Source: Candidatus Cloacimonadota bacterium (GTDB lineage: Bacteria > Cloacimonadota > Cloacimonadia > Cloacimonadales > JAIOQZ01). Taken from it: a stretch of 64,000 nt of DNA. The translations under genes and the position numbers were made by a program. The notes beneath the pieces were generated by a model. That model had not been told where the DNA came from and searched no databases. It worked only from the letters and a program-made list of their open reading frames with translations. Position 1 is the stretch's first letter. Each line of letters begins with the position of its first letter. Of the stretch, positions 762-53,782 are shown piece after piece. The stretch lies in contig JAIOQZ010000045.1 in assembly GCA_021108395.1 (NCBI GenBank), positions 11,487 to 75,486 on the forward strand, written 5' to 3'.

Positions 762-2723
<1,962 letters not shown>

Positions 2724-2736
2724 TAACGTAATAAGT

Positions 2737-2768
2737 CGGGCGGGGCTGGTTCCCGCCCGTCATTTCTA
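2737..2768 (+). terminator. GC-rich hairpin between dnaK and dnaJ (attenuator or partial terminator)
   Basis: CGGGCGGG-gctggtt-CCCGCCCG (2737-2759) followed by the T-rich tcatttct. This is a common position for a dnaK/dnaJ stoichiometry hairpin. Confidence 0.4.
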
Positions 2769-2779
2769 TAGAGGTTTGT

Positions 2780-3928
2780 ATGGCAAAACGTGATTACTAT
2801 GAAGTGCTGGGTATTGACAAGGCCGCTGATGGGTCTGCGATAAAGAAGGCCTACCGCAAGTCGGCCATGAAGTATCACCCAGACAAGAACAAAGACGACC
2901 CAGCCGCTGAGGAAAAGTTTAAGGAAGCCTCCGAGGCCTACGAAGTCCTCTCTGACCAGGACAAGCGCGCCAGGTATGACAGGTTCGGTCACGCTGGAAT
3001 GCAGGACGCCTTCGGTCAAGGCGGCTTCGGCTGGAAGGACTTCACTCACGGTTCCGAGTTCGAGGACATCTTCAGCGGGTTCAGCAGCATCTTCGACACC
3101 TTCTTCGGTGGCGGCGGCTATGGCGGCGGGGGACGACAGCGCGTCAACCGAGGCGAAGACCTGCAAATCTCCCTGTCGCTCAGTCTGAAGGAAATCGCCA
3201 GGGGCGTTGATAAGAAGATAAAAATCAACGTGCAGATTCCCTGCTCCACCTGCAAAGGCAGCGGCTCGAAGGACGGCAAAACCCGCACCTGCACCCAGTG
3301 TAACGGTTCGGGCCAGGTTCGCCAAATGCGCCGCAGTTTCTTTGGGCATATGTCAACGGTGGTTTCGTGTCCAACCTGTCATGGCAAGGGCAAGATCATC
3401 ACCGACGCCTGCCCTGTCTGCCACGGCGACGGTCGCGTGGGCGAAGCCAAAACGCTCAACGTGCACATCCCGGCGGGCGTTGCCGAGGGGCAATACATCC
3501 GCATGCGAAGCCAGGGCAACACCGGACCGAATGGCGGCCCGTCCGGCGATATTCTCGTGCTCATCCACGAGAAGGAAGACGACATCTTTGAGCGCGACGG
3601 CGACAACCTCATCTGCGAGTACCCCATCAGCTATTCGCAGGCGGCGCTGGGCACCGAGCTCGACATTCCGACTCTGACAGGCAAGGTCAAGATGAAGGTG
3701 CCGGCCGGTACGCAGTCGGGCCGTGTGTTCCGCCTCAAGGGGCAGGGACTCACCCGCCTCAACAGCGGCTATCACGGCGATCTTTTCATACGGGTAGCGG
3801 TCATCACTCCCACCAGGCTGAACGCCGAAGAAAAGCAACTGCTCGAAAAGCTGGCCAAGTTTGACAGCGCAAAGAAGCTGCACCCGGGCAAGTCGTTTTT
3901 TCAGAAACTGAAGGAATTCTTTGTTTGA
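2780..3928 (+). CDS. dnaJ: Co-chaperone DnaJ
   Basis: 382 aa with a J-domain HPDKN motif, a Gly/Phe-rich linker and four CxxCxGxG zinc-finger repeats ([32 protein letters not shown]). Confidence 0.97.
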
Positions 3929-4683: not shown

Positions 4684-4905
4684 GACAAGCTCACTTTTTG
4701 CAAAAAGTGAGATCAAAAACTTCTCTAAAAGGGTCACTCCGCTTCGCTACATGACTGGAACCTTCGTTTCCTATGTACAACAATTTCTTATGACACAAGG
4801 ATACTTTAGCATCCACCATAAATTTTCGGTCTCGCCTTTTACAAAAGGCGAGCGGGGTTCAGGGGCAGAGCCCCTGTCTTATTGGGCGAAGCCCCTGCTC
4901 TTAAG
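4684..4905. repeat. Hairpin-mosaic repeat locus A (modules H-L-X'-F' then C'-P-L'-H-T'-T')
   Basis: Contains CTCACTTTTTgcAAAAAGTGAG (4690-4711), GGTCACTCCGCTTCGCTACATGAC, GGAACCTTCGTTTCCTATGTACA, TTCTTATGACACAAGG, GGATACtttaGCATCC, CTCGCCTTTTacAAAAGGCGAG (4831-4852) and GGGGTTCAGGGGcagagCCCCTGTCTTA, plus a second partial terminal hairpin. The modules recur at eight other loci (see findings). Confidence 0.85.
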
Positions 4906-6482: not shown

Positions 6483-6552
6483 CCAAACTTTTTGTAAAAA
6501 GTTTGGATCAAAAACTTTCGGCGGATGCTTACGCATCCTTGTATCAGAAGGA
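6483..6552. repeat. Hairpin-mosaic repeat locus B (H-L-P-partial C)
   Basis: CCAAACTTTTTgtAAAAAGTTTGG (6483-6506) starts immediately after the EEP stop codon. It is followed by ATCAAAAACTTT, GGATGCttacGCATCC (6523-6538) and TTGTATCAGAAGGA. Confidence 0.8.
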
Positions 6553-6559
6553 TTTATCG

Positions 6560-18117: not shown

Positions 18118-18912
18118 TCATTCAAATGCCGGTGTAAGTTCCTCACCATCTTTGATGTACCAATTTTGAAGTGTTTCACCGGTGATGTACTCTTGAGTTA
18201 TAGTCTTTCGTTGTGGAGGTTCGCTACTGTCAACAGTAACAGATACAGTTTGAGTAACATGCGCATGTATCGTGTCAACCTGAAACATGAACAAATAGTC
18301 ATACTCCTTCTCGTCAACAGCTATACGCATACCGATTCCCACTTGTCTTTCATTACAGAAATCGATAGATACCTGATTGAGTTTTGCTTCAATTTCTGTT
18401 TTTTTAAATGATGCGGTAACAGGATAATAGTTACCCATCAGATAGTACTCGTACGATATAGCATCAGCAAAGGTTAGTGACGTGTTTAGCAAAGCAATAG
18501 TGTACTCCTTGTATGCATCATATGAGAAACAAGAGATATTAGATATTGGTGTCGTGAACCGCCGTATCTGTCCGCCTGGTGGAATGATGCTCTGATATTT
18601 CGCTTTTACTATTGCTTCAAGATTGGCTTCCAATAAATCGGTGTGGAGAGCATTATAGGTATTTCCATCAGGCGTTATGAAATATGTGTAATCCCATAAG
18701 AGAATTGTGGGCTTCTCTGTACGGTTGTGCACTTTAAAAAGAATTCCGTTATAGGTTGGCGTGAAGCTGAAAATGAATAGAGAATCAGTGTACGATAAGC
18801 CCGATCTTTGCGGTTCCACTAATGAATAATCATATGTGTATAGAACTTTTACCGATGAACAAGCTGTCAGCAATAAGCAGGCAAGCCCAATCAAACAAAC
18901 GGCGATTTTCAT
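18118..18912 (-). CDS. Hypothetical lipoprotein (AT-rich islet)
   Basis: Lipobox ...ACLLLTAC|SS. There is no recognisable domain, and the gene is visibly AT-rich relative to the flanking lptD and kbl. Confidence 0.7.
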   Translation of the reverse strand: MKIAVCLIGLACLLLTACSSVKVLYTYDYSLVEPQRSGLSYTDSLFIFSFTPTYNGILFKVHNRTEKPTILLWDYTYFITPDGNTYNALHTDLLEANLEAIVKAKYQSIIPPGGQIRRFTTPISNISCFSYDAYKEYTIALLNTSLTFADAISYEYYLMGNYYPVTASFKKTEIEAKLNQVSIDFCNERQVGIGMRIAVDEKEYDYLFMFQVDTIHAHVTQTVSVTVDSSEPPQRKTITQEYITGETLQNWYIKDGEELTPAFE

Positions 18913-20402: not shown

Positions 20403-20609
20403 ATGGCTCATGTCCACATTACGTTGGAGACAGAAATGTTGCACGAACTTTTTCCCAAGGGCGGTCGTGATGAAGCTTTTTCCAGATTGCTTAAGACAAT
20501 CTTGAATCAAGTCTTATCTCATCAGGCGACCGAACAAACTGGTCAAAATGAACGCAGAGGAAGTTTACGCGCTAATTTGGACTTGACTTCGTTTCCGATG
20601 TACAGATAA
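20403..20609 (+). pseudogene. IS256-family (mutator-type) transposase, N-terminal remnant
   Basis: The first ~45 aa of the 68-aa ORF (...AFSRLLKTILNQVLSHQATEQTG) resemble the conserved IS256 N-terminal block (..LNQVLEAQ.TEQLG). The reading frame then runs into repeat locus C and terminates. No DDE domain is present. Confidence 0.5.
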
Positions 20610-20749
20610 TTCTTATGACACAAGGATGCGCTGGCATCCACGAAAGTTTTTTGTCTCGCTTTTTACAAAAAGCGAGTGGGGTTAGTCATGTAGCGAAGCG
20701 GAATGAGCCTTCAAAGAGGACACAGCGTCCCATCTTACAAAAAGTTTGG
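20585..20749. repeat. Hairpin-mosaic repeat locus C (F'-C'-P-L'-H-truncated T'-X, plus half H)
   Basis: GACTTCGTTTCCGATGTACA, TTCTTATGACACAAGG, ATGCgctgGCATCC, CTCGCTTTTTacAAAAAGCGAG (20655-20676), TGGGGTT and GTCATGTAGCGAAGCGGAATGAGCCTT, then ACAAAAAGTTTGG (20737-20749). Confidence 0.8.
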
Positions 20750-20798
20750 CTTATTGTTCATGGCTTTTTCCCAATTATATACTAAGAGGAATGAAACG

Positions 20799-22289
20799 AT
20801 GAAACAAGCAATGGTTGTTGGAATCCTGTTGAGCGTCATAGTCACTCTGGGCACCGTTGAAAGCGACCTGGAAAGACTCATCGAGATGTATGAAAGTGGC
20901 GACTGGGGTTACGAGGAGTTGGAATTGGATATTGGCTCGGTGTTATCGGTGGACAGAACGGATAGAAGGTATGTGACAACAAGTGATGACGCAGGCTATC
21001 CTGTGGTTGAGAAGCTCGAGCGCTTTGGTGGCAACTTCGAGTTATTGTACACCAGACACCAGGAGAGTGAACAGCATTACCTGGATATGCAAATCAATCC
21101 CAGCTTCAGTCTCGATAAGTCCAATATAGAAAAAGATGACCATTATATTTTCTTCGAGAATTACTACGGTTATGGTTTCTTCGAGGAATACCTTCGAAAC
21201 TACACTGGTTCGATTGAAATCAATAAAATTTACCGAAAATACACGAGTGGGGACAGGTTCTTCAGCCTGGCTTTTGATGGTGGATTCGACATCAGTGGTG
21301 TAAAGAAAAGAACGAATATATCATATCAGGAGTACGATAACGCTGAGATAAACGTCCCGATAACGCTGAACCTGGGTGGTGGAACCGGCCGTATGCGGGA
21401 TGTTACGAATGTCGTAAGAGCCTGGCGTCTGGCGGAGCGACTGCAAGAGCAGAACGGAACACAACTCACCGACGAGCAGATACTCACCCTGGCTCGGTAT
21501 CTCGACCGGCAGCCTGCATATTCAGCCGCTTTCGACTGGAAGAACAACGCCGGCGACTATCATTTCTGGCAAGACGCGCTCTCCGCGATTGGCCTGGAGC
21601 AACTGAACTATGACGAGTTCCTGTACATCTCTCAGGAAGCTCGCGAAGGCACCATTCTTAGACGTCAACAAGGACTACTCATTGACTTTGGCGTCATTGG
21701 AGACTTGCATCTCAATACTCAGGAATACGATCCAGAAGCATACATAGTCATTGGGAATGACTACTATGAGACTAATTCGATTGATCAGTTTTCCATTGCT
21801 GGTGGTATATTCTTTTCGATTGAGTCAGCAAAAAACACGTCGAGTTCTGAACAGAAGAGGGTTACCGTGCTTGCGCAGGTGTTGATGGGAAAAACAACAA
21901 CAAGATATGATCTGGATGATTACGCTGATGAACTAAAATACACTGATGGAACCACAACCTTCAGCCTTGAACCGGGGATTGAGTACTTGAACCAGGTCTC
22001 AGATCGTTTTGGCGTCACGCTCTCAGCTTCGGCGCTCATGCTTACGCAAACAACAACTTCTGAGATGGATGACAACGATTCGAACACCTCTGACCATATG
22101 CTCCTCGGCCTTGATGTTGGTTGCCAGGGAACGTACTTCCTGGGCCCGGTGACAATGCTGGTGCTCGACGCAGGTTACAACAGGCTGGAATACTTCAATT
22201 CCGACATGGAGGCTGACAGCAATAAGGCCAGAGATAATTGGCTCATCAGTCTGCAATTGACATTCAGACCCCTCGCACGAATGTTCTGA
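20799..22289 (+). CDS. Hypothetical secreted protein, possible outer-membrane beta-barrel
   Basis: SD AAGAGGA lies 8 nt upstream of ATG 20799, and there is an N-terminal signal-like segment (MKQAMVVGILLSVIVTLG). The C-terminus ends ...LQLTFRPLARMF (terminal Phe, as in OMP beta-signals). GC content is lower than the backbone, and mosaic repeats flank both sides. Confidence 0.6.
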   Translation: MKQAMVVGILLSVIVTLGTVESDLERLIEMYESGDWGYEELELDIGSVLSVDRTDRRYVTTSDDAGYPVVEKLERFGGNFELLYTRHQESEQHYLDMQINPSFSLDKSNIEKDDHYIFFENYYGYGFFEEYLRNYTGSIEINKIYRKYTSGDRFFSLAFDGGFDISGVKKRTNISYQEYDNAEINVPITLNLGGGTGRMRDVTNVVRAWRLAERLQEQNGTQLTDEQILTLARYLDRQPAYSAAFDWKNNAGDYHFWQDALSAIGLEQLNYDEFLYISQEAREGTILRRQQGLLIDFGVIGDLHLNTQEYDPEAYIVIGNDYYETNSIDQFSIAGGIFFSIESAKNTSSSEQKRVTVLAQVLMGKTTTRYDLDDYADELKYTDGTTTFSLEPGIEYLNQVSDRFGVTLSASALMLTQTTTSEMDDNDSNTSDHMLLGLDVGCQGTYFLGPVTMLVLDAGYNRLEYFNSDMEADSNKARDNWLISLQLTFRPLARMF

Positions 22290-22306
22290 ATAATGGTACC
22301 ATCGCA

Positions 22307-22432
22307 TTGTACATAGGAAACGTAGTTTCCACATAAGTTTTCGGTTTCGCCTTTTACAAAAGGCGAGCTTGTCATGTAGCGTAGCGGAGTGAGCTTTCTA
22401 AAGGTTCAGGGGTGGAACCCCTGCTCTTGAGG
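22307..22432. repeat. Hairpin-mosaic repeat locus D (F-L'-H-X-T')
   Basis: TTGTACATAGGAAACGtAGTTTCC, ACATAAGTTTTCGG, TTCGCCTTTTacAAAAGGCGAG, GTCATGTAGCGTAGCGGAGTGAGCTTT and GGTTCAGGGGtggaaCCCCTGCTCTTGAGG. The final GAGG serves as the SD for recG, with the ATG 5 nt downstream. Confidence 0.85.
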
Positions 22433-22437
22433 TATTC

Positions 22438-24522
22438 ATGCACGAACTGCAAAAACCAGTTACGACGCTGCCTGGCGTTGGCCCCACCCGCGCCGGCCTG
22501 CTGGCCAAGCTCGGTGTGCACACTGTAGGCGATCTGATGGAGCTGTTCCCCCGCGACTACGTCCGCCGCGATACCGGCGTGGCCATCGGCGACCTCATAC
22601 CCGACCAGGTAGCCGCCGTCGTGGGTACCATCGAAAGCTGCCAAGAGAAGCGCACTCAGCGCGGACGACGGCTCGAGGCGACTCTCTCCGACGGAATGGC
22701 AAGCATGGTGTGCGTGTGGTTCCGCTGGGGCAGGTGGATCACCGATAAACTCGAGGTGGGCGCCCGCGTATGGGTGAGCGGCAAGGTGACAGTGTTTCGC
22801 GGTGTCGTTCAGATGATGCACCCCGAAGTCGAGGTGATTGGGGACAGCGGCAGGGACAAGCCGGATGATTTCTGGAGCGGACGCGATGTATTGCCGCTCT
22901 ACCCGCTTACAGAGGGCATAACGCAGAAGTGGCTGCGGCGCCTGGTGATAGAGGCCTTCGCCGCGCACCACGCCGACGTGACCGAGAACCTGCCTGCCCA
23001 GCTTATCAAGCTTTATGGCTTCACGCAGCGCGGGGCCGCCATGCAAAAGCAGCACTTTCCCGTCACCGGCACCGACATCGCCCAGGTTCGTCAGCGCTTT
23101 GCCTACGAAGAGCTGTTCTACCACCAGCTCATGCTGGCGCGTTGTCACCATCTGCGCACCGAAGCGCGAGCCGGAATGAGCCTGCCGGTGCAGCGAAAAT
23201 TTACCACCTGGTTAAAACAAAGGCTGCCATTCTCGCTCACCGCCGCGCAGAAGCGTGTCATCCGCGAGATTGTGGCCGACATGGAATCGACCGCGCAGAT
23301 GAACCGCCTGTTGCAGGGCGACGTTGGCTCCGGCAAGACCATCGTAACGCTGTTCGCCATGCTCATCGCGGTCGAGAACGGCTGCCAGGCCGCGCTCATG
23401 GCGCCCACGGAAGTGCTCGCCGAGCAGCACTTCCGCAGCATCAGCCGTTTACTGGCCGACCAACCAGATGTGCGCATTGCGCTGCTGAAGGGTGGAAAAT
23501 CTCGTGACAAGACTGCGTTGAAGGAGGCCATCGCCGCAGGTGAGGTGGACATCGTGGTGGGTACGCACGCGCTCATTCAGAAGGGCGTCGTTTTCCAGCG
23601 GCTGGCGTTTGTGGCTGTGGACGAACAACACCGCTTCGGCGTGAAGCAGCGCTCGCAACTCGCCGACAACGAGTCACGGCCGGACATCCTCCACCTTTCG
23701 GCCACGCCCATTCCCCGCTCGCTGGCGCTCACCCTCTGGGGCGATCTGGACATCAGCGTACTCGACGAACTGCCGCCCGGTCGCAAGCCCATCAAGACCG
23801 TGTGGAAGGCTGCCGACCGCATCGGAGAGGTGTATAACGCCGTTTGGAGCGAGTTGCAGAAGGGCAGACAGGCATACATGGTATGTCCGCTGGTGGAGCA
23901 AAGCGAGAAGCAAGACCTGCTCGACGCCGAAACGCTCTACGAGCGGCTGCAAAAGGGACCATTCAAGCGTTACAAGTGTGCGTTACTGCATGGCCGCATG
24001 CACTCTGACGAGAAGGACAGGGTGATGCAAGCGTTCCAACGCGGCGAGATTCACCTGCTGGTGGCCACCACAGTCATCGAGGTGGGCATCGACGTGGCCA
24101 ACGCCACCGTGATGGTCATCGAACACGCCGAGCGCTTCGGGCTTTCGCAGATGCACCAGTTGCGCGGTCGTGTGGGTCGCGGCGCCGAAGAAAGCTGGTG
24201 CTACCTCGTGGCGCATCCGCCTCTGGGCGAAGAAGCTCGCATCCGCCTGCAAACGATGGTAAGCAGCACCGATGGTTTCGTCATCGCCGAGAAAGACCTC
24301 GAGCTGCGCGGCCCCGGCAACTTCTTCGGTACCCAGCAGTCGGGGCTGCCCGCGTTCCGCCACGCCAACATCGTGCAGGATCACCAGTTGCTCAAAGCCG
24401 CCCGCGCCGACGCGCTCAAGCTCGTCGAGCACGACGCCGACATGCAGCAGCCAGACCACGCCCCGGTTCGCAACCACTACTTCCCCACCTACGCCGAGCG
24501 CGAAAGGCTGTTCAGGCAGTGA
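22438..24522 (+). CDS. recG: ATP-dependent DNA helicase RecG
   Basis: 694 aa with an OB/wedge N-terminus and helicase motifs GDVGSGKT, DEQHRFG, ATPIPRSL, TTVIEVGIDV and QLRGRVGRG. Confidence 0.95.
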   Translation: MHELQKPVTTLPGVGPTRAGLLAKLGVHTVGDLMELFPRDYVRRDTGVAIGDLIPDQVAAVVGTIESCQEKRTQRGRRLEATLSDGMASMVCVWFRWGRWITDKLEVGARVWVSGKVTVFRGVVQMMHPEVEVIGDSGRDKPDDFWSGRDVLPLYPLTEGITQKWLRRLVIEAFAAHHADVTENLPAQLIKLYGFTQRGAAMQKQHFPVTGTDIAQVRQRFAYEELFYHQLMLARCHHLRTEARAGMSLPVQRKFTTWLKQRLPFSLTAAQKRVIREIVADMESTAQMNRLLQGDVGSGKTIVTLFAMLIAVENGCQAALMAPTEVLAEQHFRSISRLLADQPDVRIALLKGGKSRDKTALKEAIAAGEVDIVVGTHALIQKGVVFQRLAFVAVDEQHRFGVKQRSQLADNESRPDILHLSATPIPRSLALTLWGDLDISVLDELPPGRKPIKTVWKAADRIGEVYNAVWSELQKGRQAYMVCPLVEQSEKQDLLDAETLYERLQKGPFKRYKCALLHGRMHSDEKDRVMQAFQRGEIHLLVATTVIEVGIDVANATVMVIEHAERFGLSQMHQLRGRVGRGAEESWCYLVAHPPLGEEARIRLQTMVSSTDGFVIAEKDLELRGPGNFFGTQQSGLPAFRHANIVQDHQLLKAARADALKLVEHDADMQQPDHAPVRNHYFPTYAERERLFRQ

Positions 24523-24692
24523 AGAGACAGGGGTTCCACCCCTGAACCCCGCTTACCTTTTTCGAGAAAAAGGTAAGACAAAAAGCTTTAACGGATACTG
24601 CGTATCCTGTGCACGAAAGATATTCTTATGACGCAAGGATGCGTTAGCATCCACCAGAGGTTTTTGATCCAAACTTTCTTCAAAAAGTTTGG
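24521..24692. repeat. Hairpin-mosaic repeat locus E (T-H-L-P-C | C'-P-L'-H, tail-to-tail dimer)
   Basis: GAAGAGACAGGGGttccaCCCCTGAACCCC, CTTACCTTTTTcgagAAAAAGGTAAG, GGATACtgcGTATCC, TGTGCACGAAAGATATTCTTATGACGCAAGG, ATGCgttaGCATCC and CCAAACTTTCTtcAAAAAGTTTGG (24669-24692). It fills the whole recG-rlmI spacer and overlaps both stop codons. Confidence 0.85.
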
Positions 24693-25840
24693 CGGCACAC
24701 AAGGCACTTCAGGTAGTCGGACTCAGGGCAGGAGGCCATAACGGGGTGGTCGGCGGAAGCGCCGCGCTCGGAGAGGAACTGCATCTGGCGTCCGGCGGCA
24801 TGGGCGGCGGTGGACAGCACCTGCCGGAACTGCAACCGACTCACGCGCCCCGAACATGAGCAGGTGAGCAGAAAGCCGTCCGGCTCGAGTGTGCGCAGGG
24901 CCAATTCGTTCAACGAGATATACCCCTTCAGCGCCTGGCGGGTGTCGCGTCCGCCGGCAAACTTCGGCGGGTCGAGCACGATGCAGCCGAAGCGCTCGCC
25001 GCTTTCCACCTGCTGTTTCAGGAAGGCGAAGGCGTCGGTGCGGTGGAACTGCACGGGCAGCCGGTTAAGCTCGGCGTTGGCACGGGCTGTCTCCAGCGCC
25101 GGCTCGGAAACATCCACCGCGGTAACGCTGTCGGCGTCGGCAGCCGCCATGTTCAGTGCGAATCCACCGGTGTAGCAGCAGACGTCGAGACAGCGGCGGC
25201 CTGCGGCCAGCGTTCGCACGGCCAGGCGATTGTCGCGCTGGTCGAGATAGAAGCCGGTCTTTTGCCCCTGCGTCGGGCTCACCATATAGCGTAGGCCATG
25301 CTCGACAATCTCGACGGCTTGCGGGGCGCCGTCCGTCAGTTCGAGCGGTTCAAGGCCTTCCTGCTTCCGCAGACCGTTGTCAGTGCGCAACACGATGCCC
25401 TTTGGTCGCAACAGGGAGCACAGCAACTCCAGCAGCATATCTGCCCGGCGGGCAAGCGCCAGGCTGGAAAGTTGCACCACGAGTTGCCGCCCGTAGCGGT
25501 CAACGGTGAGTCCACTAAGGCCGTCACCCTCGCTGTTCACGAGGCGGCAGGTGGCGCCCTGACCATACAGGTCATCGCGCAGGCGGATGGCGCTCGACAT
25601 TCGCTCGCGGAAGAAGGCCTCGTCCAGCCGCTGCTCCTGTCGCCACGAATATAACCGCAGGCGTATCTGGCTGTGACTGTTGAACAACCCCCAGGCCACG
25701 AAGCTTCCATCGCTGGTATAAAGCGGCAGTTCGTCGCCGTCTGCGGGGTTGCCGCTCACATGTTTCAGCGCCCCCGAAAACACCCAGGGATGCCGGTGCA
25801 CGAACGGCTTCTCGCGTCCAGGCTTCAGGATGGCCTTCAT
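24680..25840 (-). CDS. rlmI: 23S rRNA (cytosine1962-C5)-methyltransferase RlmI
   Basis: MKAILKPGREKPFVHRHPWVFSGA... matches the RlmI/YccW N-terminus. Also present are a PUA-like region, KTGFYLDQRDNR, the SAM motif LDVCCYTGGF and DPPKF. The ATG at 25840 overlaps a TGA (ATGA), as at a coupled junction. The track ORF extends to 25924. Confidence 0.9.
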   Translation of the reverse strand: MKAILKPGREKPFVHRHPWVFSGALKHVSGNPADGDELPLYTSDGSFVAWGLFNSHSQIRLRLYSWRQEQRLDEAFFRERMSSAIRLRDDLYGQGATCRLVNSEGDGLSGLTVDRYGRQLVVQLSSLALARRADMLLELLCSLLRPKGIVLRTDNGLRKQEGLEPLELTDGAPQAVEIVEHGLRYMVSPTQGQKTGFYLDQRDNRLAVRTLAAGRRCLDVCCYTGGFALNMAAADADSVTAVDVSEPALETARANAELNRLPVQFHRTDAFAFLKQQVESGERFGCIVLDPPKFAGGRDTRQALKGYISLNELALRTLEPDGFLLTCSCSGRVSRLQFRQVLSTAAHAAGRQMQFLSERGASADHPVMASCPESDYLKCLVCRQTF

Positions 25841-25902
25841 GCTTCGCCCCAAGCGTGGATGAACTCGAGCACTGGCAGACTGAGCCGCATCAGCTCGTTG
25901 TG
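25810..25902. repeat. 93-bp direct repeat, copy 1 (mfd-tail/rlmI-start junction; functional rlmI start)
   Basis: Identical to 26601-26693 except for one position (25893 G vs 26684 A), by eye alignment with an offset of 791 bp. Confidence 0.9.
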
Positions 25903-26015
25903 ATTGGTGCGAATAGTATTGCACTCTGTACAGTGTTGAGTGAGATCTCCTTTCGTGCCGGAGTAGAGACTACCCTCGTCCGTGTATTGGCGAAGAATGT
26001 CGAGGTTTGCGTGGG

Positions 26016-26513
26016 TTAAAAATCCCCGAGGCTTTTCGATAAGAGCTTTGCTCTCATCGTTGATCCGGCGGCGTTTGCTTCGAGCCAGCACGACAGGGGG
26101 TAGAGGTCGGAGGTCGGCATTGCCTGGCTCAGTTGAAGGTCGTGCCAGAGCGTCCCCAGTAGTTTCGGACACACCTTCAGCGCCAGTCCAAGAGATTTGC
26201 CCGCTTTCCACCCCGGCGTGTCCGTCTGCATCAGTATCCGCCGCGAGATTTGCATCAGGTCTTCCGCTGCCAGCCACGCCGGAATCAAGCGCCCTAACAC
26301 CTGCTCCTTCAGCTCCGGCAGTTCCGGCGGCGGGTTGTCCTGCTCCATCTCGCAAACCTGTCTCCACAGTTCCTCGGCGTCCAGTATCGTCTGTTCCAAC
26401 TCCTGCAACGTCGGCCACGTCACTTCTGCCACCAGCTTCTTCATCGCCTCGTTCTCCGAGACGAATCTCCGCTTCTTCGGCATCTGGTGTACTATCTCTG
26501 TTACCCTGACCAT
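26016..26513 (-). CDS. Hypothetical protein (165 aa) inside the 698-bp insert between the duplicated junctions
   Basis: Strong SD AGGAGGAG lies 7 nt upstream of ATG 26513. The helical-looking sequence is plausible (…LQELEQTILDAEELWRQV…ISRRILMQTDTPGWKAGKSLGLALK…), but I recognise no family. Confidence 0.55.
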   Translation of the reverse strand: MVRVTEIVHQMPKKRRFVSENEAMKKLVAEVTWPTLQELEQTILDAEELWRQVCEMEQDNPPPELPELKEQVLGRLIPAWLAAEDLMQISRRILMQTDTPGWKAGKSLGLALKVCPKLLGTLWHDLQLSQAMPTSDLYPLSCWLEANAAGSTMRAKLLSKSLGDF

Positions 26514-26600
26514 TGTCTATCTCCTCCTCAGATAAGATACTTGCGGTGGCGTCAACTGTCAAGTCTTCCGTGTATATCGCTTTACCGGTGTCGGAGGCAA

Positions 26601-26693
26601 TCTCGCGTCCAGGCTTCAGGATGGCCTTCATGCTTCGCCCCAAGCGTGGATGAACTCGAGCACTGGCAGACTGAGCCGCATCAACTCGTTGTG
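26601..26693. repeat. 93-bp direct repeat, copy 2 (functional mfd tail plus a decoy rlmI start)
   Basis: See copy 1. It contains the mfd stop (26628-26630) overlapping a second ATGAAGGCCATCCTGAAGCCTGGACGCGAG (MKAILKPGRE) start. Confidence 0.9.
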
Positions 26694-29600
26694 GCTGGCG
26701 CGGTAGTCATTGGACAGGGTGAAGAACACCTTCAGGTTGCCCGAGGTATCGAAGCGAACTGGGTAGTCGAAGCGCTGCACCAGCTTACCCAAATGCTGGC
26801 GGCTGGGCAGTCTGCGGCTGTCGAATTCGAGCACGAGCTCGCCACCCTTGAGCTGGTACGATACCAACTGGGCGTGCTCGGTGTGCATGCGCAGCCGATA
26901 GAACAGCAACGCTTGCTTCGCCGGTGACGGCGCCTCGCCAAAGCGGTCGATCAACTCGGCCTCGAGTTCGTCGAACTGCGATGCGTTCTCGAAACCCAGC
27001 ATTCGCTTATAGAGGTCGAGGCGCGTTTTTTCGTCGGCGATGTAGCTGTCGGGGAAATAGTGGTCGCCCGTAACCCGAACCGGCGGTGTCTGCGCTTCCT
27101 GCTCCGACCATATCTGCTGGTCTTCGTCGAGGTTGGTGATTGCCTGTTCGAGCAACTGGTTATAGTAGTTAAACCCGACGCTATTGATGACGCCGCTCTG
27201 CTTTGTTCCCAGCAGCGTACCGGCACCGCGAATCTCGAGGTCGCGCATGGCGATCTGATAGCCTGCGCCCAGATAGTCGTACTCAGTGAGCGTTTCGAGC
27301 CGCTTGCGAGCTTCCTCGCTCATGCGGGTGGGAATGACCAGATAGGCGTAGGCGCGGCGGTTGCTGCGGCCCACACGGCCTCGAAGCTGATAGAGCTGCG
27401 CTAGGCCGAACATGTCGGCGCGGTTCACGATTATCGTGTTGGCGTTGGGGATGTCGATGCCCGACTCGATGATGGCGCTGGTAATGAGCACATCGAACTT
27501 GTGGTGAGCGAAGTCGAGCATGACGCGCTCAAGCTGGCGCTCGGGCAACTGGCCATGAGCAATGGCAAAGCGCACATGCGGCAACAGTTTGCGCAAGTCC
27601 TGCGCCATGCTGTCGATGGTCTGCACACGGTTGTGCAAAAAGAACACCTGCCCGCCGCGATCTATCTCGCGGTTCACGGCGTCCTTGATGATCTCCTCGT
27701 CGAACGGCACAATGATGGTGCGCACCGGCAGGCGCGCCTTGGGCGAGGTCTGCATCAGCGAGATTTCCTTGAGTCGCGACATCGCCATGTTGAGCGTACG
27801 GGGAATGGGCGTGGCGCTCATATACAGCGTATCGACGTTGGCCTTTATCTGCCGCAGCTTTTCCTTGTGGCGCACTCCAAAGCGGTGTTCCTCGTCGATG
27901 ATGAGCAGTCCCAGCCGCTTTAAACGAACGTCTTTGGACAGCAACCTGTGTGTGCCAATGGCGATGTCAATCTGCCCCTCGCCCAGCGCAACGATGTCTT
28001 TCTTCATCGCGGCGGGTGTGCGGAACCGACTGAGCATCGTGATGTTGACAGGGTACTGCGCCAGCCGTTCGCGGAAGACGAGATAGTGCTGCTCGGCCAG
28101 CAGCGTGGTGGGAACCAGCACCGCCACCTGGTAACCCGCAAGCACTGTCTTGAACGCGGCGCGGATGGCCACCTCGGTTTTGCCAAAGCCCACGTCGCCG
28201 CAGAGCAGGCGCTCCATTGGCACGTCGCTCTCCATGTCCTGCTTGATCTCGCAGGTGGAGCGCGACTGGTCGGGCGTGTCCTCATAGATGAAGGCGTCCT
28301 CCATCTCGGTCTGCCAGGGGGCGTCGGGCGCGATGGCGATGCCCTTGCGCACCTTGCGCTCGGCATACAGCTTCACGATGTCCTCGGCCACCACCTCGAT
28401 CTGCTTGCGGGCGCGCTGCTTCTGCGTTTCCCACATCTTGCCGCCCAACTTGTGGATGGTTGGCCGATAGCCTTCCTCAGAGACAAACCGGCTCACCAGG
28501 CTGAGCTGGAACGTAGGTACATAGACTGTGTCGTTATCGGCGTAGCGCAGCGTGAGGCACTCGATTTCGCTGCCTTCCACGCTCATGCGCTTCAGGCCTT
28601 CATATACGCCAATGCCATAGTCGATGTGAACGATGTAGTCACCGGGTTGCAGGGCTTCATAATCGACCAGCGCTTCGTCTTTGGCAAACTGCGAGGCGCT
28701 GCGCCGCTTGCGGTAGCGACTGAATATCTCGTGGTCGGTGAACACCGACAGCTTCGCGTCGAGCAGGTTGAAGCCCTTTTGCAGCACACCGATGGTGAAA
28801 GTGACGCTGTCGGCCAGTTCCGGCAGCAGCTCGCGCATTCGTTTGCTCTGGCTGCGGTTGTCGCTCTGAATAAACACCGCGTGTCCGGCGGCGATTTTGT
28901 CGTTCAGGCTGCGCTCGAGCATGCCCAGGTCGCTGTGCATGTTTGTCTGCGAGGTGAGCGGCGCTTCGAGCCGGCTGACGATATGGGCGTGTTCCTGGTA
29001 GGATGAGGCGAGAAAATGCGTGTGAGCGGTGGTCAGCAGGTTGTCCAGCCAGGCGCGGCTCTCGAACAACCGCGTTGGCTCCGGCAACTGGCGTTTCTTT
29101 TTCTGAGTGCGGCTCTTTTGCCATAGCTCGGCCACTTCCTGCTCCAGCTCCTCGATATAGCCAGGAAAGAACTGATACTCGTCGAAGAGGAAAAGCGGCT
29201 GCTTCAACCACTGGGCAAAGCTTTCGAGTCGTGGCAGCAGTAGCGACACATCCTGCTCGATGCCGTCATAGAAGCCGTTATCGTGAATGCGCTCCCACAG
29301 TTGTTCGTCGGCGTCGATGTCGTGCAATGAAAACTCGCGAGAGGGCAGCAGCGTCACCCGTTTCACGGCGCCCTCCAGCGAACGCTGCGAAGCCACGCTG
29401 AACGAGCGCATGCCCACAATCTCGTCACCCCAGAACTCGATGCGCACCGGATAGGCGAGGTTGGGCGAAAACACGTCCACAATGCCGCCGCGCCGCGCCA
29501 CCTCGCCCACACGCGACACCTGGTATTCGTTGGCGTAACCCATGCCCACGAGGTTGGACACCAGCACGTCGGGGTCATACTCTGCGCCGCTATTGAGGCC

Positions 29601-30023
29601 GATGATGTTGGCCGCAAACATCTCGCGGGGCACGATCTGGCGCAGCAGCGAGCGCAACGGCACGCTGTATATCTGCGGTCGGCCGGACACGGCCCTGGCC
29701 AAAGCCTCGATGCGCTGTGCCCGGATGGTGTAGTGCGGCGAGCGCTCCTCGAAGGGCAGCACCTCGAAGTCGGGCAGCAGGCAGGCGCTTTCGCGTCCAA
29801 CCAGAAGCTGCAAGTCTTCGAGGTAGTCCTCGGCGGTTTTGTCGTCGGCGCTGACAAAGACGATGTCGCACTGCCTTTGACGGAAGACATGCGCCGCCAG
29901 CGCTGCCTTGGCCGAGGCGTTGAGGCCGTGCAGCAGACAGCCGCGCCCCTTCGCCGACAGAGCCTCCGTGGCCTGCGTGAAGAACGGGGAACGTTCGAGT
30001 TGCACAAAAAGCTGTGAAAGCAT
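26628..30023 (-). CDS. mfd: Transcription-repair coupling factor Mfd
   Basis: About 1,131 aa with a UvrB-homology N-terminus and helicase motifs GDVGFGKTEVA, IIDEEHRFGV, ATPIPRTL and QLRGRVGRS. The second of two ATGs lies 5 nt downstream of SD AGGAG. Confidence 0.95.
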   Translation of the reverse strand: MLSQLFVQLERSPFFTQATEALSAKGRGCLLHGLNASAKAALAAHVFRQRQCDIVFVSADDKTAEDYLEDLQLLVGRESACLLPDFEVLPFEERSPHYTIRAQRIEALARAVSGRPQIYSVPLRSLLRQIVPREMFAANIIGLNSGAEYDPDVLVSNLVGMGYANEYQVSRVGEVARRGGIVDVFSPNLAYPVRIEFWGDEIVGMRSFSVASQRSLEGAVKRVTLLPSREFSLHDIDADEQLWERIHDNGFYDGIEQDVSLLLPRLESFAQWLKQPLFLFDEYQFFPGYIEELEQEVAELWQKSRTQKKKRQLPEPTRLFESRAWLDNLLTTAHTHFLASSYQEHAHIVSRLEAPLTSQTNMHSDLGMLERSLNDKIAAGHAVFIQSDNRSQSKRMRELLPELADSVTFTIGVLQKGFNLLDAKLSVFTDHEIFSRYRKRRSASQFAKDEALVDYEALQPGDYIVHIDYGIGVYEGLKRMSVEGSEIECLTLRYADNDTVYVPTFQLSLVSRFVSEEGYRPTIHKLGGKMWETQKQRARKQIEVVAEDIVKLYAERKVRKGIAIAPDAPWQTEMEDAFIYEDTPDQSRSTCEIKQDMESDVPMERLLCGDVGFGKTEVAIRAAFKTVLAGYQVAVLVPTTLLAEQHYLVFRERLAQYPVNITMLSRFRTPAAMKKDIVALGEGQIDIAIGTHRLLSKDVRLKRLGLLIIDEEHRFGVRHKEKLRQIKANVDTLYMSATPIPRTLNMAMSRLKEISLMQTSPKARLPVRTIIVPFDEEIIKDAVNREIDRGGQVFFLHNRVQTIDSMAQDLRKLLPHVRFAIAHGQLPERQLERVMLDFAHHKFDVLITSAIIESGIDIPNANTIIVNRADMFGLAQLYQLRGRVGRSNRRAYAYLVIPTRMSEEARKRLETLTEYDYLGAGYQIAMRDLEIRGAGTLLGTKQSGVINSVGFNYYNQLLEQAITNLDEDQQIWSEQEAQTPPVRVTGDHYFPDSYIADEKTRLDLYKRMLGFENASQFDELEAELIDRFGEAPSPAKQALLFYRLRMHTEHAQLVSYQLKGGELVLEFDSRRLPSRQHLGKLVQRFDYPVRFDTSGNLKVFFTLSNDYRASHNELMRLSLPVLEFIHAWGEA

Positions 30024-30030
30024 CATCTCT

Positions 30031-30294
30031 CCTAAGAGCAGGGGCGCCGCCCCTGAACCCCACTCGCCTTTTGCAAAAGGCGAGACCGAAAACTTTTGTG
30101 GATGCTACGCATCCTTGTGTCAAAAGAATAATATGTGTACATGGAAATATTTCTGGACGAATGATAACGCATCTTCGTTATACACACAAGTTTATTTTTA
30201 CTGTACATAGGAAACGAAGTTTCCGCAAAAGTTTTTGATCCAAACTTTTTACAAAAAGTTTGGTGGGGTTCAGGGGCAAAGCCCCTGTCTTAGG
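30031..30294. repeat. Hairpin-mosaic repeat locus F, full-length palindromic composite (T-H-L-P-C-centre-F-L'-H-T')
   Basis: CCTAAGAGCAGGGGcgccgCCCCTGAACCCC ... GGGGTTCAGGGGcaaagCCCCTGTCTTAGG form terminal inverted repeats. Internal modules are CTCGCCTTTTgcAAAAGGCGAG, GGATGCtacGCATCC, TTGTGTCAAAAGAATAAT, TGTACATAGGAAACGaAGTTTCC and CCAAACTTTTTacAAAAAGTTTGG. It fills the divergent mfd/fetA spacer. Confidence 0.9.
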
Positions 30295-30301
30295 AGATGC
30301 G

Positions 30302-32900: not shown

Positions 32901-33037
32901 TGAAGAGCAGAAGATACTTCGCATCCTTGTGCACAAAATATATTCTTATGACACAAGGAAACGTAGTTTCCACAAAAGTTTTTGGTCTCGCTTTTTTCAA
33001 AAAGCGAGCGGGGTTCAGGGGTGGAACCCCTGTCTTA
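32901..33037. repeat. Hairpin-mosaic repeat locus H (T fragment-degenerate P-C|C'-F-L'-H-T')
   Basis: TGAAGAGCAG, GATACTTCGCATCC, TTGTGCACAAAATATATTCTTATGACACAAG, GAAACGtAGTTTCC, CTCGCTTTTTTcAAAAAAGCGAG (32987-33008) and GGGGTTCAGGGGtggaaCCCCTGTCTTA. The terminal TTA is the complement of the nnr stop codon. Confidence 0.85.
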
Positions 33038-34504
33038 CTGTAGCATCAGGTTATCGAGAATGTCGGTGGGCAGGATGGAGGCCGTGTCCCGCTGTTGGGC
33101 GAGGCGCTCGGCTGTGCTGCCAAGCAGGTGTGCTCCGCCGATTGCCGCCGCAGAAGGTGCAAGCCCCTGAGCCATGAATGCCGTGATAATGCCGGCCAGC
33201 ACATCGCCGCTGCCGCCGGTGGCCAGTCCGTCGTTGCCGGTGATGCTGAACAGGAAGCGATCACCGTCGCAAAAGACGCTGGTGACGCCCTTGAGCAGAA
33301 CACCCACTTGATATTTGGCGGCGAAGTCTCGCAGGTGCGGCAAAGGGTCGGCGAGGATGTCGGCGGGTGTCATGCCGGTGAGCCTGGCGAACTCGCCAAC
33401 GTGCGGCGTGAGCGCCACTGGCCGCCCTGCCAGCTTCACGAGCAAATCCTCACGCTGGGAGAGTATGGTGAGCGCGTCGGCGTCCAGCGCCAAATCGCCG
33501 ACGTGATGTTCGATGACAAGCTCGAGCCAGTGCGTGGCTGCCTCGCCCGTGCCCATGCCACAACCGGCCAGCACGGTGTCCATCGTGGCGAGCTTGGCGA
33601 GAAAGGCGTCGTCGTCCGCGAGGGCGAAGGTCATCAGCTCTGGCTGTGCACCGCAGAACACCGCCTCCATTCCTGACGGATGGAAGAGGGTGACCAGTCC
33701 GCCACCGGCGCGCAAAGCGCCACGCGAGGCCATGATGGCGGCCCCGCTATAGCCTGGCGACCCCGCCAGTACGCCGATGCGGCCAAAGTATCCCTTGTGA
33801 CCGTGCGGGTCGCGCAGGGGCAGCAGCGGCTCTGTGAGCAGCCAGCCGCCAGGTTCGTGTTGCGCCACAAGTTGCGGCGGGACACCAATGTCGATAACGA
33901 CGAGGTCGCCGCAGAGAACGCGGCCCCGACCGAGGAAGTGGCCATATTTGGGCGCGGCCATCGTCAGTGTGACTTCGGCAGCCACGGCGGTGCATGCCCC
34001 GCCGGTATCGGCGTCCACGCCACTGGGGATGTCCACCGCCGCCACTGGCGCCCCGCTGTCGTTCATAGCCTCGATAACCATGCATCGCCAGTCGTTCAGC
34101 TCGCCCTTGAGTCCAATGCCGAACAGGGCATCAACCACGAGGTCGAACGCGGCGAGGTCGGGACAGGCTGTCTCGTCCACCGGAACCATGTCGAGTTCAA
34201 GCCGGACGCAGAGCTCGCGGTTGGCGCTGGTCTCGACCGACATCCTGGTGGCATCGCCCACCTCGAACACAACCGGGTGATGGCCCCAGCTATGCAGCCA
34301 GCGGGCAATAACATAGCCGTCACCGCCGTTGTTGCCCGTGCCGCACACAATGGCCACGCGCCCGGGGTTGGACAGCATCTCGGTGTCAATCCAGGCGGCG
34401 CAGGCAGAGCCGGCGTGTTCCATCAGGATAGCGCCGGGCAGACCGAAATCCTCGATGGTGGCGCGGTCGAGCGCCTGCATTTCTTGGCGGGACAGAACGT
34501 ACAT
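33035..34504 (-). CDS. nnr: Bifunctional NAD(P)H-hydrate repair enzyme (epimerase/ADP-dependent dehydratase)
   Basis: 489 aa. The YjeF_N part has CGTGNNGGDGYV, and the C-terminal carbohydrate-kinase part has GCGMGTG and GGSGDVLAG. Confidence 0.9.
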   Translation of the reverse strand: MYVLSRQEMQALDRATIEDFGLPGAILMEHAGSACAAWIDTEMLSNPGRVAIVCGTGNNGGDGYVIARWLHSWGHHPVVFEVGDATRMSVETSANRELCVRLELDMVPVDETACPDLAAFDLVVDALFGIGLKGELNDWRCMVIEAMNDSGAPVAAVDIPSGVDADTGGACTAVAAEVTLTMAAPKYGHFLGRGRVLCGDLVVIDIGVPPQLVAQHEPGGWLLTEPLLPLRDPHGHKGYFGRIGVLAGSPGYSGAAIMASRGALRAGGGLVTLFHPSGMEAVFCGAQPELMTFALADDDAFLAKLATMDTVLAGCGMGTGEAATHWLELVIEHHVGDLALDADALTILSQREDLLVKLAGRPVALTPHVGEFARLTGMTPADILADPLPHLRDFAAKYQVGVLLKGVTSVFCDGDRFLFSITGNDGLATGGSGDVLAGIITAFMAQGLAPSAAAIGGAHLLGSTAERLAQQRDTASILPTDILDNLMLQ

Positions 34505-35892: not shown

Positions 35893-35980
35893 ATGTCAAT
35901 GAATTATTAGTTTGTATTGAAAACGCTTGACATTTAATGAAATGCTATTAGTGATTTTAACAGACAATCGGAGGCCACAA

Positions 35981-36757
35981 ATGAAAGAGCGTACATTGAA
36001 GAGTCTGTTTGCATTTTCTCATAATAGGTGTGCTTTCCCTGGTTGCGATGAACCTATCGTTACCTTTGAGGATCAAATAGTATTGGGTGAGATTTGCCAT
36101 ATTGAATCCTCTAAACCTACTGGACCAAGATATAACAGTGAACTTACCGGTGATAAATGTGATAGTATAGATAATTTACTGCTACTTTGCAGAATTCATC
36201 ATAAATTGATTGATGCGAATACTATGAAATTTCCCGTAAAAGTATTAAGGAAGATGAAAAATACACACGAAGACACAACAATAAAAGAAATCGGAATCAA
36301 GGAAAAACAAGCCGGTATATTGCTATATCAACATCATATTTGTGTTATTGGGAATGTTGTAATCCGTAATTCAGAAGCTACAATTACTGCACACAATGTA
36401 AATATCAGGGGCAGTAAACGGCTTAAGGTTAACAAAGTACCACTCGAAAACTCGATAGGTGCAAATATTTATAAAAAGGCATACATTGAATATCTTATTC
36501 ATCGCTACAATGAATTAGCATCTGAAAATGCAAATAGGAAAAGCAAGTTTAGTCATGCAGCAATTCGAAAGAATATCAAGGATAATTTCGGTGCTTTGTC
36601 TAATGATATGCCGATTGATAAATTTGAAGATATATCACGTTATCTACAGCGAAGAATAGATCGTACTATGATTGCTCGAATGAAGAAAGCATCTGGCAAA
36701 ATGTATCATTCGTTTGAAGATCATGTAAGAAAAATGAAAGGGAGTGAGAAAAAATAA
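35981..36757 (+). CDS. HNH endonuclease domain protein with uncharacterised C-terminal domain (AT-rich islet)
   Basis: SD GGAGG lies 6 nt upstream. The N-terminus reads NRCAFPGCDEP...GEICHIES...DNLLLLCRIHHKLID (Cys pair plus H-N-H). The remaining ~170 aa are unassigned. The gene is strongly AT-rich compared with its flanks. Confidence 0.75.
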   Translation: MKERTLKSLFAFSHNRCAFPGCDEPIVTFEDQIVLGEICHIESSKPTGPRYNSELTGDKCDSIDNLLLLCRIHHKLIDANTMKFPVKVLRKMKNTHEDTTIKEIGIKEKQAGILLYQHHICVIGNVVIRNSEATITAHNVNIRGSKRLKVNKVPLENSIGANIYKKAYIEYLIHRYNELASENANRKSKFSHAAIRKNIKDNFGALSNDMPIDKFEDISRYLQRRIDRTMIARMKKASGKMYHSFEDHVRKMKGSEKK

Positions 36758-44589: not shown

Positions 44590-44818
44590 GTGAAGACAGG
44601 GGTTCCACCCCTGAACCTTTGAAAGCTCACTCCGCTTTGCTACGCAACAAGCTCGCTTTTTGTAAAAAGCGAGACCAAAAACTTCTAACGGATGCTAACG
44701 CATCCTTGTATAATAAGAATAATTTTTGTACATAGGAAACGCAGTTTCCGCAAGAGTTTTTGATTCCACTTTTTACAAAAAGTGGATGGGGTTCAGGGGC
44801 AACGCCACTGTCTTAAGG
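44590..44818. repeat. Hairpin-mosaic repeat locus I, full-length palindromic composite (T-X'-H-L-P-C-F-L'-H-T')
   Basis: GTGAAGACAGGGGttccaCCCCTGAACC, GAAAGCTCACTCCGCTTTGCTACGCAAC, CTCGCTTTTTgtAAAAAGCGAG, GGATGCtaacGCATCC, TTGTATAATAAGAATAAT, TGTACATAGGAAACGcAGTTTCC, CCACTTTTTacAAAAAGTGG and GGGGTTCAGGGGcaacgCCACTGTCTTAAGG. It fills the whole spacer between the metallophosphoesterase and rbr stops. Confidence 0.9.
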
Positions 44819-44819
44819 T

Positions 44820-45365
44820 CTATTGGAAATATCTGTCGAGCAGGCCTTTGAATGCCTTGCCGTGACGAGCTTCATCCTTGCACATCTCGTGCACTGTGTC
44901 GTGAATCGCATCGAGATTCAGTTTCTTGGCGAGAGTGGCCAGGTCTTTCTTTCCCTGACAAGCGCCGAATTCGGCATCGACCCGCATCTGAAGATTGGTC
45001 TTGGTGTCGGGCGCTACTACTTCGCCCAGAAGCTCGGCGAATTTCGCTGCGTGCTCCGCTTCCTCAAAAGCGATTCTCTTGTAGGCTTCGGCAACTTCGG
45101 GGTAGCCTTCTCTATCAGCCTGGCGGCTCATCGCCAGATACATACCCACTTCCGTGCACTCGCCCATGAAGTTGGCCTTCAGCCCTTCAACGACTTGTGC
45201 GTCCACGCCCTGGGCGATGCCGATAACATGCTCGTCCGCCCAAGCCATCTGTGTCTCGCCCTGTAGCTTGAACTTGTCCTTTGGCGCCTGGCACATGGGG
45301 CATTTATCCGGGGGTGTCTCGCCTTCGTGAACATAACCGCATACTGTGCAAATCCATTTCTTCAT
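44820..45365 (-). CDS. rbr: Reverse rubrerythrin (N-terminal rubredoxin-like domain + diiron ferritin-like domain)
   Basis: 181 aa with CTVCGY...CPMCQA at the N-terminus, followed by ExxH diiron motifs (EEAEHAAKF; DEARHGKAF). Confidence 0.9.
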
Positions 45366-53144: not shown

Positions 53145-53774
53145 CTATTTCGTTAGTGTATCGAGTTTGTCAAACAGCAGGTCAATGTCGGTGCTGAGGG
53201 CGTCATCACCGCAATCATTGGCTTTCTTTTCTTTTCTCATCATTTTTGCACGTTCTCTCGCCTTTGGGAGCAATTCAAGTAGTTCCTGCATGTGCTTTTC
53301 TATAAAATAGCGATGGCCTTTCTGATACTTCGGTAAGTATTTCTTCAGTTCTGCAATAAGCTTGTCGCATTCAAGATAATCGGCTGATGTGTAACAATAA
53401 TGGAGCAAAAGCCAGACCTCAAAGCAAGGCATACTGAGAAACAGCTTAATCTTGCTATCCTTTGCCCTGTACTTATTCTGAATATTCTTGAATTCATTGA
53501 GAAGTTCTTGATTCCTCATGATAACATCTTTATCAAAAACAACCAAAGCCAAGTCATAGCCTTCCTTGATTAATCGCTTTGCTTTAGCTATAATGCCATC
53601 AAGACATGGATGACCATTTGGTAGTTCCGGTTTTGTTTTAACAACAGATCTGTACTTGCGCGAATTTTGAATAATTTTCTGGAAATACGCCTGCTCGGTT
53701 TCACCTTCAGCGACAATAACCCAACTTTTCTCCTTTTTTCTGCCCTTTCTTCTGCCTTTTGTATAGTGTGCCAC
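53145..53774 (-). CDS. RloB-like (Toprim-related) protein, AbiLii-like
   Basis: GTG start with SD AGGAG overlapping the upstream ATPase stop. WVIVAEGETEQAYFQKI matches the RloB motif (CEGEKTEPxYF), and an acidic VVFDKD follows. The gene is AT-rich, and its stop codon abuts the tcdA stop with 0 nt between. Confidence 0.7.
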   Translation of the reverse strand: MAHYTKGRRKGRKKEKSWVIVAEGETEQAYFQKIIQNSRKYRSVVKTKPELPNGHPCLDGIIAKAKRLIKEGYDLALVVFDKDVIMRNQELLNEFKNIQNKYRAKDSKIKLFLSMPCFEVWLLLHYCYTSADYLECDKLIAELKKYLPKYQKGHRYFIEKHMQELLELLPKARERAKMMRKEKKANDCGDDALSTDIDLLFDKLDTLTK

Positions 53775-53782
53775 AATATCTC

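Follow-up and report, generated by a model that had tools for sequence, protein, structure and literature searches.

An ORFan-bearing insert between two copies of the mfd-rlmI junction in a Cloacimonadota contig

In a contig of Candidatus Cloacimonadota bacterium (GenBank assembly GCA_021108395.1, contig JAIOQZ010000045.1), the housekeeping genes mfd and rlmI are separated by a 698-bp insert that carries one open reading frame (ORF), orf165, and is bracketed by two copies of the stop/start junction of the two genes. We analysed this locus within a stretch of 64,000 nucleotides (positions 11,487 to 75,486 of the forward strand; hereafter the window, in whose numbering all positions are given), following up a prediction made from the sequence letters alone (the original prediction). 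The structure was taken from one SPAdes-named short-read metagenome contig, NODE_25_length_133091_cov_16.87 (ENA analysis ERZ26872896), with a k-mer coverage of about 17. The overall GC content of the window is 57%, and its clear genes have a GC content at third codon positions (GC3) of 0.72-0.83. The gene order on the minus strand is mfd (26628-30026), orf165 (26016-26513) and rlmI (24680-25840), followed by a convergent recG.

Direct comparison of the two repeat copies confirmed that positions 25810-25902 and 26601-26693, offset by 791 nt, are identical bar one base (G at 25893, A at 26684). The longest exact run between the copies is 83 nt, and similarity reaches to 25911/26702, giving 102 nt at 96% identity. 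An 82-nt probe from the repeat located only these two sites in the 64-kb window, where none was expected from 100 shuffles. Each copy contains the last 21 codons of mfd, the ATGA in which stop and start overlap, and the first 10 codons of rlmI, encoding '...NE(L)MRLSLPVLEFIHAWGEA' up to the stop and, across the overlap, 'MKAILKPGRE'.

The copy on the mfd side (copy 2; 26601-26702 on the minus strand, with a core at 26601-26693 and a degenerate extension to 26702) holds the real Mfd tail with its stop (TGA 26630-26628), together with a non-functional duplicate rlmI ATG (26631-26629) and rlmI codons 2-10. The copy on the rlmI side (copy 1; 25810-25911, core 25810-25902, same strand) holds the duplicated Mfd tail, whose TGA (25839-25837) overlaps the real rlmI ATG (25840-25838), and again rlmI codons 2-10. 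Two Mfd tails and two RlmI starts are present, one of each on a full gene, and the anatomy is as originally described. A small inverted repeat, GAGC-TGATGCG-GCTC (25882-25896), lies at the fuzzy mfd-side end of the repeat, and its left arm holds the sole mismatch between the copies (25893/26684); speculatively, it might be a crossover or recombinase core.

Both neighbours of the insert are intact. The mfd gene encodes a transcription-repair coupling factor of 1131-1132 codons with Pfam TRCF and helicase domains, and ends inside copy 2. The 386-codon rlmI gene encodes an RlmI-like 23S rRNA 5-methylcytosine (m5C) methyltransferase with a Pfam PUA_3 domain and an S-adenosylmethionine-dependent (SAM) methyltransferase domain, and lacks a recognisable Shine-Dalgarno sequence. 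The best homologues of the Mfd protein come from Cloacimonadota and reach at most 65% identity, so the lineage has been sampled poorly. Logan contigs of run SRR15668623 encode identical RecG and GidA-like proteins, and the organism therefore occurs in at least one more data set.

The origin of the contig raises the question of whether the tandem arrangement could be a product of assembly. The chromosome would then have a single junction, and a 791-bp unit (the insert plus one repeat), present as a separate circle or in a sub-population, would have been threaded into the contig as a loop of the assembly graph. The short-read, SPAdes-named source and its coverage are compatible with such an event. 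If the default largest k-mer of metaSPAdes (55) was used, it was shorter than the 83-nt exact repeat. The Logan data point the same way, in that no contig of SRR15668623 encodes orf165, full-length RlmI or Mfd. However, the contigs of the organism in that run are short (2-8 kb), so that missing genes there say little, and two of them (L003 and L007) stop short of the mfd-rlmI junction. Reads of about 150 nt (an assumed length) would, moreover, span an 83-nt repeat. A graph loop also needs reads that join the repeat to the start of the insert and the end of the insert to the repeat, so that the 791-bp unit and a junction copy would physically exist either way. We consider an assembly origin very unlikely.

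Beyond the repeat core, the two edges behave differently. On the mfd side, identity falls to about 41% within about 15 nt while the register is kept for about 72 nt; on the rlmI side the edge is abrupt, and the next 24-60 nt are at chance level in both in-register and gapped comparisons. The mfd-side continuation in copy 1, here called tail B (25903-25975, minus strand), is a degenerate Mfd C-terminal remnant of about 24 codons (...TKGDLTQHCTECNTIRTNHNE) that is in frame with the duplicated Mfd tail and free of indels and stops. In the 72 nt that lie upstream of the CACAACGAG common to the tails, tail B agrees with the real tail at 29 positions (29/72; p=0.008) and with the Mfd tail of a relative, JGI contig L010, at 30 (30/72; p=0.005); the two genuine tails agree at 48 of the 72. 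In translation, tail B retains the skeleton T-x-G-x-L ... T ... R..H.E found in the genuine tails, and further upstream, beyond these 72 nt or so, Mfd similarity is no longer detectable. The diverged second Mfd tail claimed on the insert side is thus real, with a weak signal.

Tail B is about equally far from the resident tail and from that of a different genus, yet it adjoins a core that is 99% identical between the copies. This mosaic (99% identity over 93 nt, falling on the mfd side to about 41% over about 72 nt and breaking off sharply on the rlmI side) is our main argument that the incoming DNA brought an arm homologous to the Mfd tail, which was not derived from the resident copy.

A different course of events could have generated the same outline in situ. 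A staggered break of about 165 nt over the junction, or a short tandem duplication of that length, would have captured foreign DNA between the two copies in an old event; the distal part of copy 1, tail B, would then have drifted to about 41% identity free of constraint, and the core would have been held by gene conversion and by selection on the Mfd tail in copy 2 and the rlmI start in copy 1. The in-register alignment of tail B with the real tail, without indels, agrees with this course, as do the host-like GC3 of orf165 (see below), which is expected after long residence, and the failure to find a recombinase or other copies. The fall from 83/83 identity to about 41% within about 15 nt is harder to accommodate, because uniform drift would not produce it without conversion. 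An old, selected gene should also have homologues, and none was found; the lineage, however, is barely sampled. It also counts against insertion in situ that, to our knowledge, target duplications of about 100-165 bp are not described for any bacterial insertion mechanism, and we regard this course as unlikely.

To determine the ancestral state of the locus, we compared it with the nearest available relatives, JGI contigs L010 and L011. Both have a single overlapping mfd/rlmI junction (GTGA) with nothing between the genes, which is the outcome of the comparison proposed in the original prediction. These relatives are distant (RlmI is 69% identical, and the C-terminal part of Mfd is clearly related), and if one repeat and the insert are taken out of the window, the alignment becomes colinear. 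Because L010 and L011 have a single junction without an insert, the mfd-rlmI insert is, by this comparison, a derived insertion. A conspecific empty site was not found, and an RlmI query of GTDB genomes returned no relative.

More distant Cloacimonadota have genes other than rlmI downstream of mfd. At one such locus (JGI 3300075153, from a Cloacimonadota relative), genes for an HTH/SocA_Panacea-domain protein and an uncharacterised protein of 131 codons lie directly downstream of mfd; this gene content suggests that what follows mfd varies within the phylum. In another relative, L012 (JGI Ga0116244_10049839), the upstream neighbour of rlmI (1875-3083) is not mfd but a 124-codon ORF (1363-1737), the C-terminal part of which resembles the end of an rve-type transposase, as judged by eye only. 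The rlmI reading frame of L012 shifts out of frame after about codon 310.

Rearranged relatives of this kind could have served as donors in a further explanation, transformation followed by homology-facilitated recombination. The incoming DNA would have come from a divergent relative in which rlmI lay apart from mfd, with a decaying mfd 3′ stub and orf165 upstream of it; one end would have recombined within the junction/rlmI homology, and the other would have been joined illegitimately just after rlmI codon 10. L012, where an apparent transposase remnant rather than mfd precedes rlmI, indicates that rearranged donors exist. The abrupt rlmI-side edge has the look of an illegitimate joint, and the fuzzy edge on the mfd side fits a homologous anchor. 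However, the donor core would have to be 99% identical while the adjacent 72 nt are near saturation, and no donor-like sequence was found in the searched collections. We hold this course to be quite unlikely.

The cargo of the insert is orf165, a 165-codon ORFan on the minus strand (26016-26513). Its GC content at the three codon positions (0.60/0.40/0.75) follows the host gene pattern and is the best of all six frames, and its codon-usage score (0.13, against a host mean of 0.59) lies at the bottom of the host range. The very strong Shine-Dalgarno sequence reported earlier was recovered: GAGGAGGAG occupies 26521-26529 on the minus strand, 7 nt before the orf165 ATG at 26513, and ribosome-binding sites of the GGAG/AGGAG type are common among host genes. 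About 20 nt upstream of the start codon, on the same strand, lies a sigma-70-like promoter candidate, TTGACA-17 nt-TATCTT (26534-26562), which by its match to the consensus TTGACA-17-TATAAT (10 of 12 positions) may function as a promoter.

Homology searches revealed no credible relatives of orf165 in Pfam, PHROGs, PADLOC, NCBIfam, PDB sequences, IMG/VR, plasmids or phages. A word-filtered search of about 5.8 billion clusters found no homologue, nor did phmmer, run in full against 1.84 billion representatives, find a credible one; its sole match, P0122, is a 7-fold repeat protein whose score summed weak matches, and it was rejected. An NCBIfam match to the C-terminus of the Pol III psi subunit (18 bits, E=0.0027, cutoff 225) had no backing from other searches and was likewise set aside. 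A single-sequence AlphaFold model (mean predicted local distance difference test score, pLDDT, of 55) depicts an all-helical protein with low confidence, and Foldseek with this model returned generic helical bundles only, none at E≤0.001 (best 0.21). The original prediction had let the standing of the ORF hang on two properties, homologues and a coding signature: database searches yielded no homologues, and the coding signature is present.

Co-transcription of orf165 with mfd and rlmI had also been proposed. We found no terminator-like site on the coding strand inside the insert and no stable structure between orf165 and rlmI; because such a terminator-like site is missing, transcription running through the insert into rlmI is plausible, and this part of the proposal stands, with the addition that the insert has a promoter-like site of its own. 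No Rfam family occurs in 25600-26900, and the non-coding parts of the insert have no significant fold.

A reading frame of 264 codons spans the entire insert on the minus strand (25837-26631). Shifted by +2 with respect to orf165, it runs open from the duplicate rlmI ATG of copy 2 as far as the duplicated mfd TGA, with which the real rlmI ATG overlaps; this start and this stop share a frame because the unit is 791 nt long, a length of 2 mod 3. A frame at the same offset is open in only 4% of 166-codon windows of host genes. Randomisation placed the chance of an open frame over the part overlapping orf165 at 0.029 (host codon usage) or 0.19 (own codons permuted), and that for the non-coding flanks at 0.048. 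Avoidance within orf165 of T-ending codons before AA, AG or GA codons, the pairs that would create stops in this frame, was not significant (p=0.09).

This open frame admits the possibility that the insert is adapted to the coupled gene pair. Ribosomes that end mfd would re-initiate, translate a relay ORF that is unconstrained in sequence, and hand over to rlmI. As rlmI has no Shine-Dalgarno sequence, a relay ORF preserving termination-reinitiation coupling is conceivable, and if it exists, tail B would have decayed without indels or stops because selection acted on the reading frame alone. We know of no description of a junction-specific mini-element, or of an old islet, that preserves coupling by such a frame, and we consider the suggestion decidedly doubtful.

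The same geometry could in principle have arisen without foreign DNA, had about 0.8 kb spanning the junction been duplicated in tandem and then decayed, with orf165 born de novo from decayed mfd/rlmI sequence. The unit indeed starts and finishes in the junction, the mfd reading frame is open across the entire insert, and tail B would represent the decayed Mfd tail. However, local and anchored alignment, blastn and tblastn revealed no similarity of the insert to the mfd 3′ or rlmI 5′ regions, a profile of 120 Mfd C-termini matched nothing in any of the three frames of the insert, the GC3 periodicity follows the orf165 frame and not the mfd frame, and the rlmI-side flank has no homology at all. 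Only the repeat and the roughly 72 nt of tail B are homologous, and for the remaining 620 nt or so neither blastn, tblastn nor the Mfd C-terminal hidden Markov model gave any match. Similarity to the neighbouring genes is confined to the repeat and tail B, so the insert is no local duplication; we rejected this candidate, and a tandem origin is extremely improbable.

Several known systems offer points of comparison. In Campbell-type integration, a circle carrying a chromosomal fragment, such as a suicide plasmid, enters by a single crossover; the shared segment is duplicated, the flanking genes stay intact and the event is reversible. The mfd-rlmI insert shares the duplicated segment and the intact neighbours, and differs in that the 791-bp circle would have no replicon and no known source and that one arm is a strongly diverged homologue. 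It is well known that integrative elements can enter the 3′ or 5′ end of a housekeeping gene and duplicate that end, and their decayed derivatives, cis-mobilizable elements (CIMEs), retain attL and attR after loss of the integrase (PMC5704250). The insert resembles CIMEs in lacking an integrase or transfer genes of its own, in its small cargo, in repeats that hold a gene end and a gene start beside full-length neighbours, and in the empty site of the distant relatives L010 and L011. It departs from them in the length of its repeat, 93-102 bp against a usual 8-60 bp (PMC5704250), and in its target, the overlapping stop/start of two coupled genes; the insert is only 698 bp long and carries a single ORFan, and neither a cognate integrase nor a parent element or second instance is known.

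Integron cassettes, among them those that insert outside att sites (bioRxiv 10.1101/2022.09.11.507474), share the size class of about 0.5-1 kb, the single ORF and movement as a small circle. The insert, by contrast, has its own promoter-like site, and no attC-like imperfect palindrome or significant structure was found in the 113 nt after orf165 (no dedicated attC model was used). As far as we know, insertion of an integron cassette does not duplicate 93 bp of its target. With no such palindrome after orf165 and no IntI gene or other integrase within ±10 kb, we rejected a cassette origin. A diverged second copy of a gene 3′ end nearby also recalls diversity-generating retroelements, but here the repeat spans the stop codon and the start of the next gene; this candidate was rejected as well, as there is no reverse transcriptase within ±10 kb and, on reading the sequences, we judged the substitutions between the tails to be of all types rather than adenine-specific. 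An insertion sequence or transposon was rejected on the lack of an inverted repeat pairing the insert ends, the lack of a transposase, and a duplication of 93-102 bp instead of 2-14 bp.

Collectively, these features lead us to favour, with middling confidence, a Campbell-type crossover that inserted DNA already equipped with a junction copy of its own, leaving what is now a decayed, integrase-less integrative islet. In the ancestral state, mfd would have overlapped rlmI directly (NTGA). The incoming DNA would already have carried a degenerate Mfd tail followed by the junction core of about 93 bp, and we infer a single crossover within the junction, either site-specific or driven by RecA. The product would be mfd, junction, 698-bp cargo, junction and rlmI, with both neighbours intact. 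The present remnant would be a recombinase-less, CIME-like islet with one ORFan gene apparently ready for expression, given its promoter-like site and strong ribosome-binding site, and transcription could run on into rlmI. If the two 93-bp repeats recombined with each other, the unit would be cleanly removed and the locus would return to its ancestral junction.

The original prediction had likened this geometry to the attL and attR of an element that integrates into a gene end. The two junction copies and the degenerate insert-side tail support the likeness; a site-specific element is not established, with no recombinase within ±10 kb and no other copy of insert or repeat in the collections searched. 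That the element "brings a replacement end" proved ambiguous: the degenerate tail would replace the region upstream of rlmI, and the real tail would stay on mfd unless the crossover took place at the far edge of the repeat. The remark that the insert is tiny and has no integrase agrees with its length of 698 bp and with the gene content of its surroundings.

A number of observations weigh against an integrative origin. No integrase or other recombinase gene was found within ±10 kb, and the search for other copies of the insert, likewise called for originally, found no second copy in the parts of the contig searched. A degenerate pattern of the junction had no match in JGI metagenomes, GTDB genomes or IMG/VR, and neither insert nor repeat occurred elsewhere in phages or plasmids. 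A duplicated mfd tail was absent from 80 JGI metagenome mfd loci (retrieved with the Mfd C-terminus as query, best identity 65%) and from L008-L010; these 83 other loci give no sign of a recurrent element with this target. Across the same collections, together with the phages, plasmids and 83 mfd loci, we found neither an autonomous relative of the element nor a cognate integrase acting on this att site. The repeat also exceeds the 8-60 bp usual for tyrosine-recombinase elements (PMC5704250), a near-perfect core beside a near-saturated flank requires the extra assumption of recurrent core crossovers or gene conversion, and the structure rests on one short-read metagenome contig. Exact-protein look-ups of RlmI (386- and 390-codon versions), Mfd and orf165 returned the source contig only, and the insertion is a singleton.

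Elsewhere in the window, we observed an intergenic multi-hairpin repeat family of about 70-130 nt at 4755-4895, 20580-20705, 22300-22440, 24593-24700, 30195-30300, 32942-33050 and 44720-44830, with further sites at 6506-6553 and 44673-44720. Its hairpins are AGGAAACG..AGTTTCC, CTCGCTTTTTACAAAAAGCGAG and GGGGTTCAGGGGCAGAGCCCCTG, the last of which often runs into CTGTCTTA and the ribosome-binding site of the next gene. These repeats may be REP-like (resembling repetitive extragenic palindromes) or may form a promoter/terminator module, and two copies flank the low-GC gene at 20703-22289.

That gene (528 codons, plus strand) is one of three low-GC3 genes, the others lying at 18118-18912 (264 codons, minus strand) and 57164-57955 (263 codons, minus strand). 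The three have no Pfam or PADLOC family, no mutual similarity and no flanking exact repeats, and look like foreign single-gene islets between core genes. An AbiL-type abortive-infection pair at 53145-55048 (minus strand) forms a two-gene islet of low GC3 (0.43-0.53), composed of an RloB-domain gene (AbiLii) and an AAA_21/AAA_15 ATPase gene (AbiLi, E=3e-80). An HNH_2 endonuclease gene at 35927-36757 (plus strand; GC3 0.27) resembles the PADLOC candidate-defence effector PDC-M68A (E=8e-29). No repeats of 14 nt or longer flank these other low-GC islets of the window.

The feature between mfd and rlmI is most likely real, well defined and of an ordinary kind, a small recombinational insertion with duplication of the junction. 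With no recurrent element and no assignable function, its value is chiefly that of an example. It provides a concrete ORFan, equipped with its own promoter-like site and ribosome-binding site, in a barely sampled high-GC lineage resembling Cloacimonadota. If the structure is real, a new gene has slipped between two translationally coupled housekeeping genes and damaged neither, through duplication of their stop/start junction, and the insertion would be reversible by recombination between the repeats.

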